Below, piece after piece: positions 27,501-30,363 of a DNA stretch of 64,000 nt. The first letter of the stretch is position 1, and every line of letters starts with the position of its first letter. The notes below the pieces were generated by a model. It had not been told where the DNA came from and ran no database searches. It saw only the letters and a program-made list of their open reading frames with translations. The stretch comes from Escherichia coli (GTDB taxonomy: Bacteria > Pseudomonadota > Gammaproteobacteria > Enterobacterales > Enterobacteriaceae), in NCBI RefSeq assembly GCF_024502345.1, contig NZ_JALDNN010000001.1, one strand, 5' to 3'. Both the position numbers and the translations under genes were made by a program.

Positions 27501-27591
27501 GCGACTCCTCCGGCAAAACGGAAGTTTATCACTTGTGCGTTATAACGGACAAATGCTACGGTACCTGTACGCTATAACGCACGAGGTGACT

Positions 27592-28764: not shown

Positions 28765-28798
28765 TAAAAAGCGCCATCTAACGATGGAGCGTCTGGAA

Positions 28799-29467
28799 CT
28801 ACTTTTTGTTAACGTCAAACATGGTGGCATCGGTCGCCATGTCATCAATAACTTGTTTAATATTTTCGAAAGCCATTGGCGTACTTTCGTTATTCAGGTC
28901 TTTACCTTCGCCCTGACGAACGACTTTGATAACCGGTTTATTAGTTGCTGCATCAATCAGCTCACCTTCAAAATACAAGCGAGTATCCATGGTACGGTGG
29001 CCTGTAGCCATTTGCGTCCCCGCAACCACTAATGCAACAGGAACCACTTCATAGAATTGCAGCCCTTCTTTGCTGGTATCTACACCGGTAATGGCCCCAC
29101 GGAAAATCAGACTACGCGGCCCCGCGGTGGTAACCAGTGGTTTACGCTGCGCTATCGCTTCTTTCATTTCGGTGTTGGTATAGTTCAAAATTTTATCCAG
29201 AACTTTCTGCCCTACCTGGGTCGAAGGTTTCGGTACCGGATAATAAGTGATTGGGTTCCAGACGATGCTGTCATATTTGCTTTGATCAAAACTCGGGTCT
29301 ACCCACCGTAAAACCGGTTTACCTGTAGCCGAGGTTGTTTCTTTTAAATCAGAGTAATTGTTTAAAAAACCAGAATATTTATCTGGCTGGGTGATTTTAG
29401 AGGCACAACCAGACAGAGCCAACAAGCCGCATAAAGCTGCAACTTTCGCAAATGATGTGGTACGCAT
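28799..29467 (-). CDS. ydcL: Lipoprotein YdcL
   Basis: 222-aa ORF with lipobox (LALSGCAS). Confidence 0.85.
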   Translation of the reverse strand: MRTTSFAKVAALCGLLALSGCASKITQPDKYSGFLNNYSDLKETTSATGKPVLRWVDPSFDQSKYDSIVWNPITYYPVPKPSTQVGQKVLDKILNYTNTEMKEAIAQRKPLVTTAGPRSLIFRGAITGVDTSKEGLQFYEVVPVALVVAGTQMATGHRTMDTRLYFEGELIDAATNKPVIKVVRQGEGKDLNNESTPMAFENIKQVIDDMATDATMFDVNKK

Positions 29468-29769
29468 GAATAGTTTCCTGAGATGATTATATTACTTTTT
29501 AAGTTATAGCAAAAAGCGCCGCTTCGTGTTGTGGCAAAAAAAGTGTTGGTGAAAATAAATTTTTCAGCCCCTTTTCAGACGACATAGTCAATGCCGAAAA
29601 AGGGGCTAAGTCAATCATCAGTAGTTAAATTTCAGTAAGTTAAGCTGCTAAAAAACTTCGACTACTGTGATTAATTTCACATCCCTTCGATAAAAAATAT
29701 GCTTACCGAAAAGAAGAACAGTAAACCATCTCAGCGTGGGGAATTTTCACGCGCTTTGTTCTTACCGGG

Positions 29770-30363
29770 TCATTTTTTACGTGCCAGCATCGTGGCGAAA
29801 CGCAGTTTAATACGATTACCGTTGGCGTCGGTGCGGTGCAGCTCGCCGACGTCCTCATTGTATTTCACCATCTCCCAGTCTTCGTAATATCGACGTAATT
29901 CTCCCTCTTTGAAGGCAAACGGGAAGCCGACGGTACATGGATAATCAGCGGTATCCATCGCCGCCACAATCAGGTTGTAACCACCAGGTTTCGTGCAACG
30001 TTGCATATTGGCAATCAGCCCTGGGATGGTCTTAGCCTCAAGGAACATCAGTACCACAGTCGAAAGAATAAAATCGTACTGTCCATCAAATGTGAGGTTA
30101 TTCAGATCAACGACCCGGGTGTGTAAATTATCCAGATTTTCAATGGATTTAATGCGCTCGACGTTGGCGATACTCATGGCATTTTTATCCCATGCGTCAA
30201 CATCATAACCATTGGCTGCCAGGAAAAGACTGTTACGACCATTGCCACAGCCCAGATCCAGCGTTTTACCCGGTTTAACCACTTTCACCGCTTCCAGTAC
30301 TTCAGAGTGTGTGCGGGTTAATTCATATTTATCAGTAAAATAGTTTTCGTCACGAATGATCAT
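29770..30363 (-). CDS. tehB: Tellurite methyltransferase
   Basis: 197-aa SAM-dependent methyltransferase (…[15 protein letters not shown]…). Confidence 0.9.

Follow-up and report, generated by a model that had tools for sequence, protein, structure and literature searches.

The inverted repeat between tehB and ydcL of Escherichia coli as the putative template of an RNA stem-loop that ends the tehA-tehB message

The spacer between tehB and ydcL of Escherichia coli carries a 10-bp inverted repeat, for which an earlier note on this DNA had proposed two possible roles, as a binding site for a regulator or as a structured element in RNA. Which of the two does the locus support? The arms AGCCCCTTTT (29566-29575) and AAAAGGGGCT (29598-29607) are 100% complementary over 10 nt and stand 22 nt apart, where ~21 nt had been claimed. 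According to the ORF listing and the RefSeq annotation of matching E. coli records, tehA, tehB and ydcL share the minus strand (Table 1). The repeat, first placed about 100 bp downstream of the ydcL start, therefore lies 98 nt upstream (5') of the ydcL ATG, and its distance from tehAB, put at about 200 bp, is 162 nt, counted 3' from the tehB stop. The K-12 MG1655 counterpart is located at NC_000913.3 ~1502317-1502358 (+ strand), where the RefSeq annotation has no feature. Between ydcL and ydcO, the element IS609 (insQ/tnpA), present in K-12 MG1655 and BE2-5, is absent here (28765-28798).

Table 1. Positions in the window of the tehB-ydcL spacer features and of the flanking genes
Feature	Position	Strand	Basis
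tehB	29770-30363	minus	ORF listing and RefSeq annotation
tehB stop codon, end of the coding part of the upstream transcription unit	29770..29772	minus	ORF listing and RefSeq annotation
Full hairpin on tehB-sense RNA, UUAGCCCCUUUUUCGGCAU-UGACU-AUGUCG-UCU-GAAAAGGGGCUGA	29564..29609	minus	Minimum-free-energy fold
5' arm on sense RNA, AGCCCCUUUU (right-hand arm of the earlier note)	29598..29607	minus	Repeat search and pattern count
Inner stem CGGCAU/AUGUCG with apical loop UGACU, within the apparent 22-nt loop	29580..29596	minus	Fold
3' arm on sense RNA, AAAAGGGGCU (left-hand arm of the earlier note)	29566..29575	minus	Repeat search and pattern count
3' flank GAAAAAUUUAUUUUC, A-run then U-rich stretch, no U-tract beside the stem	29551..29565	minus	Terminator scan and base count
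Putative ydcL promoter block: TTTTTTTGCCACAAC at 29528-29542, extended -10 TGCTATAAC at 29503-29511	29503..29542	minus	Cross-genus conservation
ydcL	28799-29467; ATG at 29467	minus	ORF listing and RefSeq annotation

As a class, a lone 10-nt repeat is a weak signal and only suggestive. The exact repeat pattern occurs once in the window (the whole 64-kb stretch of DNA analysed) and in 0 of 100 shuffles. In shuffled sequence, perfect 10-nt inverted repeats with a spacer of 3-30 nt arise at a rate of 1.9 ± 1.6 per window, and the real window contains 39 of them at ~17 loci. The tehB-ydcL repeat was counted as real because it is conserved, and not on the strength of the repeat alone. Elsewhere in the window, a perfect 10-nt inverted repeat formed by GTGCGTTATA and TATAACGCAC, 28 nt apart, is found at 27535-27582 in the divergent ydcN-ydcO spacer, and is a candidate operator for YdcN, an XRE/cupin-type regulator.

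Within the species, conservation is nearly complete. Among 5426 complete E. coli genomes, 5412 contain the tehB-ydcL spacer, at a median of 1 place per genome; the 62-nt segment containing the hairpin is present in 5406, in 2997 of them at an identity of at least 99%. Three variant genomes were sampled, and in two of them the arms are unchanged. In MS21199, the G just 3' of the 29566-29575 arm is replaced by A, so that the perfect arms grow to 12 nt. Another variant is altered where the T-run ends on its inner side, at the wobble pair that tops the outer stem. The third genome, FCI1 (NZ_CM172811.1), shows a ~36-nt local tandem duplication inside the hairpin, comprising the 5' arm and part of the loop, either a genuine variant or an artefact of assembly. 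Beyond E. coli, the outer stem is kept in E. albertii and in four other Escherichia lineages, including cryptic clades, and the arms have remained paired in each of the 6 Escherichia lineages, with more divergence in the 5' block beside them. Thus, the paired arms, whose loss from related genomes the earlier note had named as what would speak against it, turned out to be conserved across Escherichia.

When the region was folded as tehB-sense RNA, a hairpin of 46 nt and 19 pairs was obtained, interrupted by a 3-nt bulge and capped by a 5-nt loop. Its minimum free energy is -26.3 kcal/mol (z -4.9), a stability reached by 0 of 200 shuffles, while the antisense strand folds less well (-21.4 kcal/mol, z -3.0) because several G-U pairs of the sense strand become A·C mismatches. 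The same segment, 29564..29609, is also the best closed hairpin in a scan for upstream hairpins, with -24.4 kcal/mol. The outer stem has 12-13 pairs, including GCCCC/GGGGC, and thus exceeds the GC-rich stem of at least 5 pairs that is looked for in a terminator. The apparent 22-nt loop, on account of which the repeat had been thought too long-looped for a typical terminator, is predicted to pair internally in E. coli, with the inner stem adding 6 pairs on the minus-strand RNA; the true departure from a terminator is the missing U-tract. The inner stem CGGCAU/AUGUCG is specific to E. coli, and the apical loop, for which a terminator would have about 3-8 nt, is reduced to 5 nt only if these 6 bp form; the other Escherichia lineages pair UGAC with GUCA, which gives a stem of 4 bp and a loop of 6 nt. 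The sense fold matches or exceeds the antisense fold in stability in 6 of 7 Escherichia sequences. Covariation within the genus is not significant, since among 6 close sequences the share of paired cells (88%) is equalled by shuffles and a single pair only has changed on both sides.

The hairpin lies 3' of the co-directional gene tehB, that is, where a terminator would be placed. However, no U-tract follows at 0-2 nt after the stem, where the tail reads GAAAAAUUUAUUUU. In E. coli the stem is followed directly by GAAAAA, the U-rich stretch begins 6 nt later, and T accounts for 3 of the first 8 bases. In agreement, a terminator scan of the minus strand from 29300 to 29900 called no terminator between tehB and ydcL. 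Since the U-tract is missing, the hairpin was not filed as a canonical intrinsic terminator.

The position of the hairpin becomes meaningful when the region upstream of ydcL is compared across the family. A YdcL scan of Enterobacteriaceae yielded 80 loci, and about half of them have tehB next to ydcL on the upstream side. Among 81 sequences, 66 have their most stable upstream hairpin ending 90-112 nt (median 99) ahead of the ydcL ATG. A GC stem followed by a T-run occupies this slot in Enterobacter, Leclercia, Lelliottia, Silvania, Klebsiella/Raoultella, Yokenella, Trabulsiella and Pseudenterobacter. The scan called the slot hairpin a canonical terminator both in Yokenella, where the upstream gene is tehB, and in Enterobacter asburiae, where it is a gene for an ABC-transporter binding protein. 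These differences in the upstream gene indicate that the slot carries the terminator of whichever gene precedes ydcL. The E. coli hairpin occupies the terminator slot, and cross-genus homology starts immediately 3' of it. The arm sequences themselves are not conserved outside Escherichia, where unrelated hairpins or plain terminators are found instead.

In Citrobacter and Salmonella, the slot is filled by a hairpin that ends 95-103 nt before the ydcL ATG. Like that of E. coli, it has no T-run, and an A-run follows the stem, a feature shared by the hairpins of all three genera; on the sense strand of Citrobacter portucalensis, as on that of E. coli, no other terminator-like site was found between tehB and ydcL. 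The consensus stem of 9 bp has 95% of its cells paired and compensatory changes in 8 of the 9 pairs, values reached by 0 of 500 shuffles and lost in slid controls, which collapse. Judged from these alignments, the Citrobacter/Salmonella hairpin is clearly under selection for pairing, and its many G-U pairs on the tehB-sense strand point to a structure at the RNA level. Its stem sequence is unrelated to that of the E. coli hairpin, and its loop is short and T-rich, unlike the E. coli one. A covariance model of the Citrobacter/Salmonella hairpin gave the E. coli hairpin at most 3 bits, even with the filters off. Homology of the two could thus not be demonstrated, and only positional equivalence is claimed.

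Immediately downstream, the region before ydcL shows a conserved order of AAWTTGTGC, TTTTTTGYCACAAC and TTTGCTATAAC, the last lying 42-49 nt before the ATG. The element TGCTATAAC(TT) / TTTGCTATAAC looks like a sigma-S-type extended -10, and a genomic-SELEX peak of the RpoS holoenzyme located in the tehB>ydcL spacer (PMC5493296) is consistent with such a sigma-S-like block. The 3' end of the hairpin would then lie at about -70 from the predicted ydcL start site, itself placed about 29 nt ahead of the ATG, and the hairpin would fall outside the ydcL mRNA. In the stretch from the hairpin to the ydcL -10 element stand TTTATTTTCACCAACAC and TTTTTTTGCCACAACAC (29526-29559, minus strand), tandem direct repeats of 17 nt that are 76% alike and could be paired binding sites.

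With moderate confidence, we interpret the hairpin as an RNA stem-loop with which the tehA-tehB message ends, acting as a non-canonical terminator or as a stem that protects the 3' end. The inverted repeat would be the DNA template of this stem-loop, situated between the tehB stop and the ydcL promoter, and the stem-loop would set the 3' end of the tehAB mRNA. This might happen in either of two ways, by weak, non-canonical termination at the hairpin itself, or by a block to 3'-to-5' exonucleases once Rho-dependent termination or processing has taken place further downstream. In addition, the stem-loop would probably shield the sigma-S-type ydcL promoter from read-through. Points against this reading are the absent U-tract, the distance of 162 nt from the stop codon, long for a terminator, the non-significant covariation within Escherichia and the failure of the Citrobacter/Salmonella model to detect the E. 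coli hairpin. The Term-seq tables of Adams et al. 2021 (PMC7815308) contain no 3' end for tehB or ydcL, which may reflect low expression of tehAB, and no usable entry for either gene was found in the other published 3'-end and start-site data searched. Of the two possibilities raised at the outset, the structured RNA is thus supported by the sense fold, the slot and the covariation in Citrobacter/Salmonella, in the mundane form of a hairpin in terminator position and not as a regulatory RNA; the binding site is disfavoured by arms that are unconserved outside Escherichia and by variation that is in large part G-U wobble.

An alternative is that the hairpin belongs to a longer functional RNA, either as a stability or processing element of a tehAB-ydcL read-through mRNA or as part of an Escherichia-specific 3' UTR or sRNA module together with two hairpins upstream. 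We consider this unlikely. The whole spacer folds in the sense direction with -84 kcal/mol (z -5.4), and its 165-nt part with three hairpins reaches z -6.25 in the sense versus z -3.2 in the antisense orientation; tehB-ydcL adjacency is common, read-through is plausible given that no canonical terminator stands between the two genes, and a single-stranded A/U-rich tract lies 3' of the stem. However, RNAalifold on 5 Escherichia sequences returned a positive, that is penalising, covariation term and several pairs of the extra hairpins are broken, so that these could not be supported as conserved RNA. Escherichia sp. MOD1-EC7003 has lost a block of ~128 nt with these hairpins in it and retains the hairpin studied here. 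Moreover, ydcL has a promoter of its own, conserved across genera, and a search of both strands of the spacer against Rfam 15 at a permissive E-value gave chance-level matches only, the best family scoring 17.8 bits against a threshold of 70.

Taken as a whole, the extra block of Escherichia amounts to ~140 nt 3' of the tehB stop (within 29608-29769, minus strand) and is single-copy; Citrobacter, Salmonella and Escherichia sp. MOD1-EC7003 do not have it. Its sense strand forms the two further hairpins. It contains the CRP-type palindrome TGTGA-N6-TCACA (29666-29681), the only perfect one in the window where 0.06 are expected, at 58 nt from the hairpin and inside the Escherichia-specific part of the spacer; the palindrome is kept in E. 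albertii and in those cryptic clades that have the block, and no literature on it was found. On inspection, neither strand has a -10 at class I or class II spacing, which argues against a CRP-dependent promoter that would put the hairpin in a 5' UTR. Overlapping the palindrome, a promoter-like TTCACA-16-TATGCT is located on the + strand, antisense to tehB (29676-29703). It is followed after ~30 nt by a hairpin that resembles a terminator and has a T-rich tail (29734-29752, + strand); the two could give rise to a very short antisense transcript. For the same intergenic region, the SF1779/tehB spacer of Shigella flexneri 301, an sRNA termed Ssr15 has been predicted computationally (PMC4782007). 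Ssr15 is placed on the strand opposite to tehB, was derived from promoter and terminator predictions only, is missing from the candidates marked as RT-PCR-validated (PMC4782007), and is linked by nothing to the E. coli hairpin.

It is also conceivable, although quite unlikely in our view, that selection on the hairpin is weak or absent and that it is a relic, an ancestral terminator without its U-tract whose palindrome persists through the close kinship of the Escherichia lineages. The missing U-tract, the non-significant covariation in Escherichia and the chance expectation of about two such repeats per window would all fit. Nevertheless, the arms have stayed paired in all 6 lineages while the 5' block next to them diverged more, and the Citrobacter/Salmonella hairpin, which is also without a U-tract, shows strong compensatory change.

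A DNA operator, in which a dimeric or tetrameric regulator would bind the two arms of 10 bp, spaced by about three helical turns, at approximately -110 to -70 of the ydcL promoter, is very unlikely. Perfect arms upstream of a promoter would suit it, as would the heptamer ATTGACT, which every Escherichia sequence has unchanged both in the loop and directly 5' of the hairpin, and the response of ydcL to a truncation of Rob in one study (PMC7537768). However, the promoter block is conserved across genera and the arms are not, with unrelated hairpins or terminators filling the slot, and the substitutions are often G-U compatible, so that RNA pairing is kept while DNA symmetry is broken. A MarA/SoxS/Rob marbox had been suspected because the motif AATTTGTGC is conserved in other genera and ydcL is down in a rob mutant, but no match with up to 3 mismatches was found in the E. 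coli spacer, and the counts over the window are at chance. Of the marbox and CRP motifs, compared here along the lines suggested in the earlier note, the only nearby match was the CRP-like site 58 nt away, outside the arms. Very unlikely as well is the proposal that the hairpin of Escherichia, Citrobacter and Salmonella, being neither terminator nor relic, is a distinct RNA device (for instance a site for processing or chaperone binding, or an element for conditional read-through) that couples transcription of tehAB to the sigma-S-dependent lipoprotein gene ydcL and that, in Escherichia, is extended by the lineage-specific structured block with the perfect CRP-type site.

Two other identities were rejected. 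A member of a REP/BIME/ERIC or MITE family would be repeated in the genome, and the hairpin with its adjacent block is single-copy (median of 1 place per genome in ~5,400 E. coli genomes). A 39-aa ORF that runs over the hairpin (29618..29499, minus strand) has lost its start and is shifted in frame in Escherichia sp. E1V33 and E. albertii.

Taken as the stem-loop at the 3' end of the tehA-tehB message, the hairpin is an ordinary kind of element, and the conserved absence of the U-tract is its sole unusual aspect; it raises no new question. Its value for annotation is that, in E. coli K-12, it likely delimits the tehAB unit on its 3' side and the ydcL promoter region on its 5' side. A terminator slot that has been kept as a hairpin in three genera after loss of the U-tract could also be useful for studies of non-canonical termination and of 3'-end protection.

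Among known systems, stem-loops of the REP/BIME type protect mRNA 3' ends by stalling 3' exonucleases. They share with the E. coli hairpin that they are stable, have no U-tract and are found in 3' untranslated or intercistronic positions. The E. coli hairpin differs from them in being single-copy and belonging to no repeat family, and its protective role is putative. Compared with the canonical intrinsic terminators of Enterobacter, Leclercia, Yokenella, Trabulsiella and Klebsiella/Raoultella, it has no adjacent U-tract, its 46-nt stem-loop is long and has a bulge, and the stop codon is 162 nt away. What it has in common with them is a GC-rich stem-loop on the sense strand, 3' of a co-directional gene, that ends ~100 nt before the ydcL ATG and adjoins the conserved promoter block.
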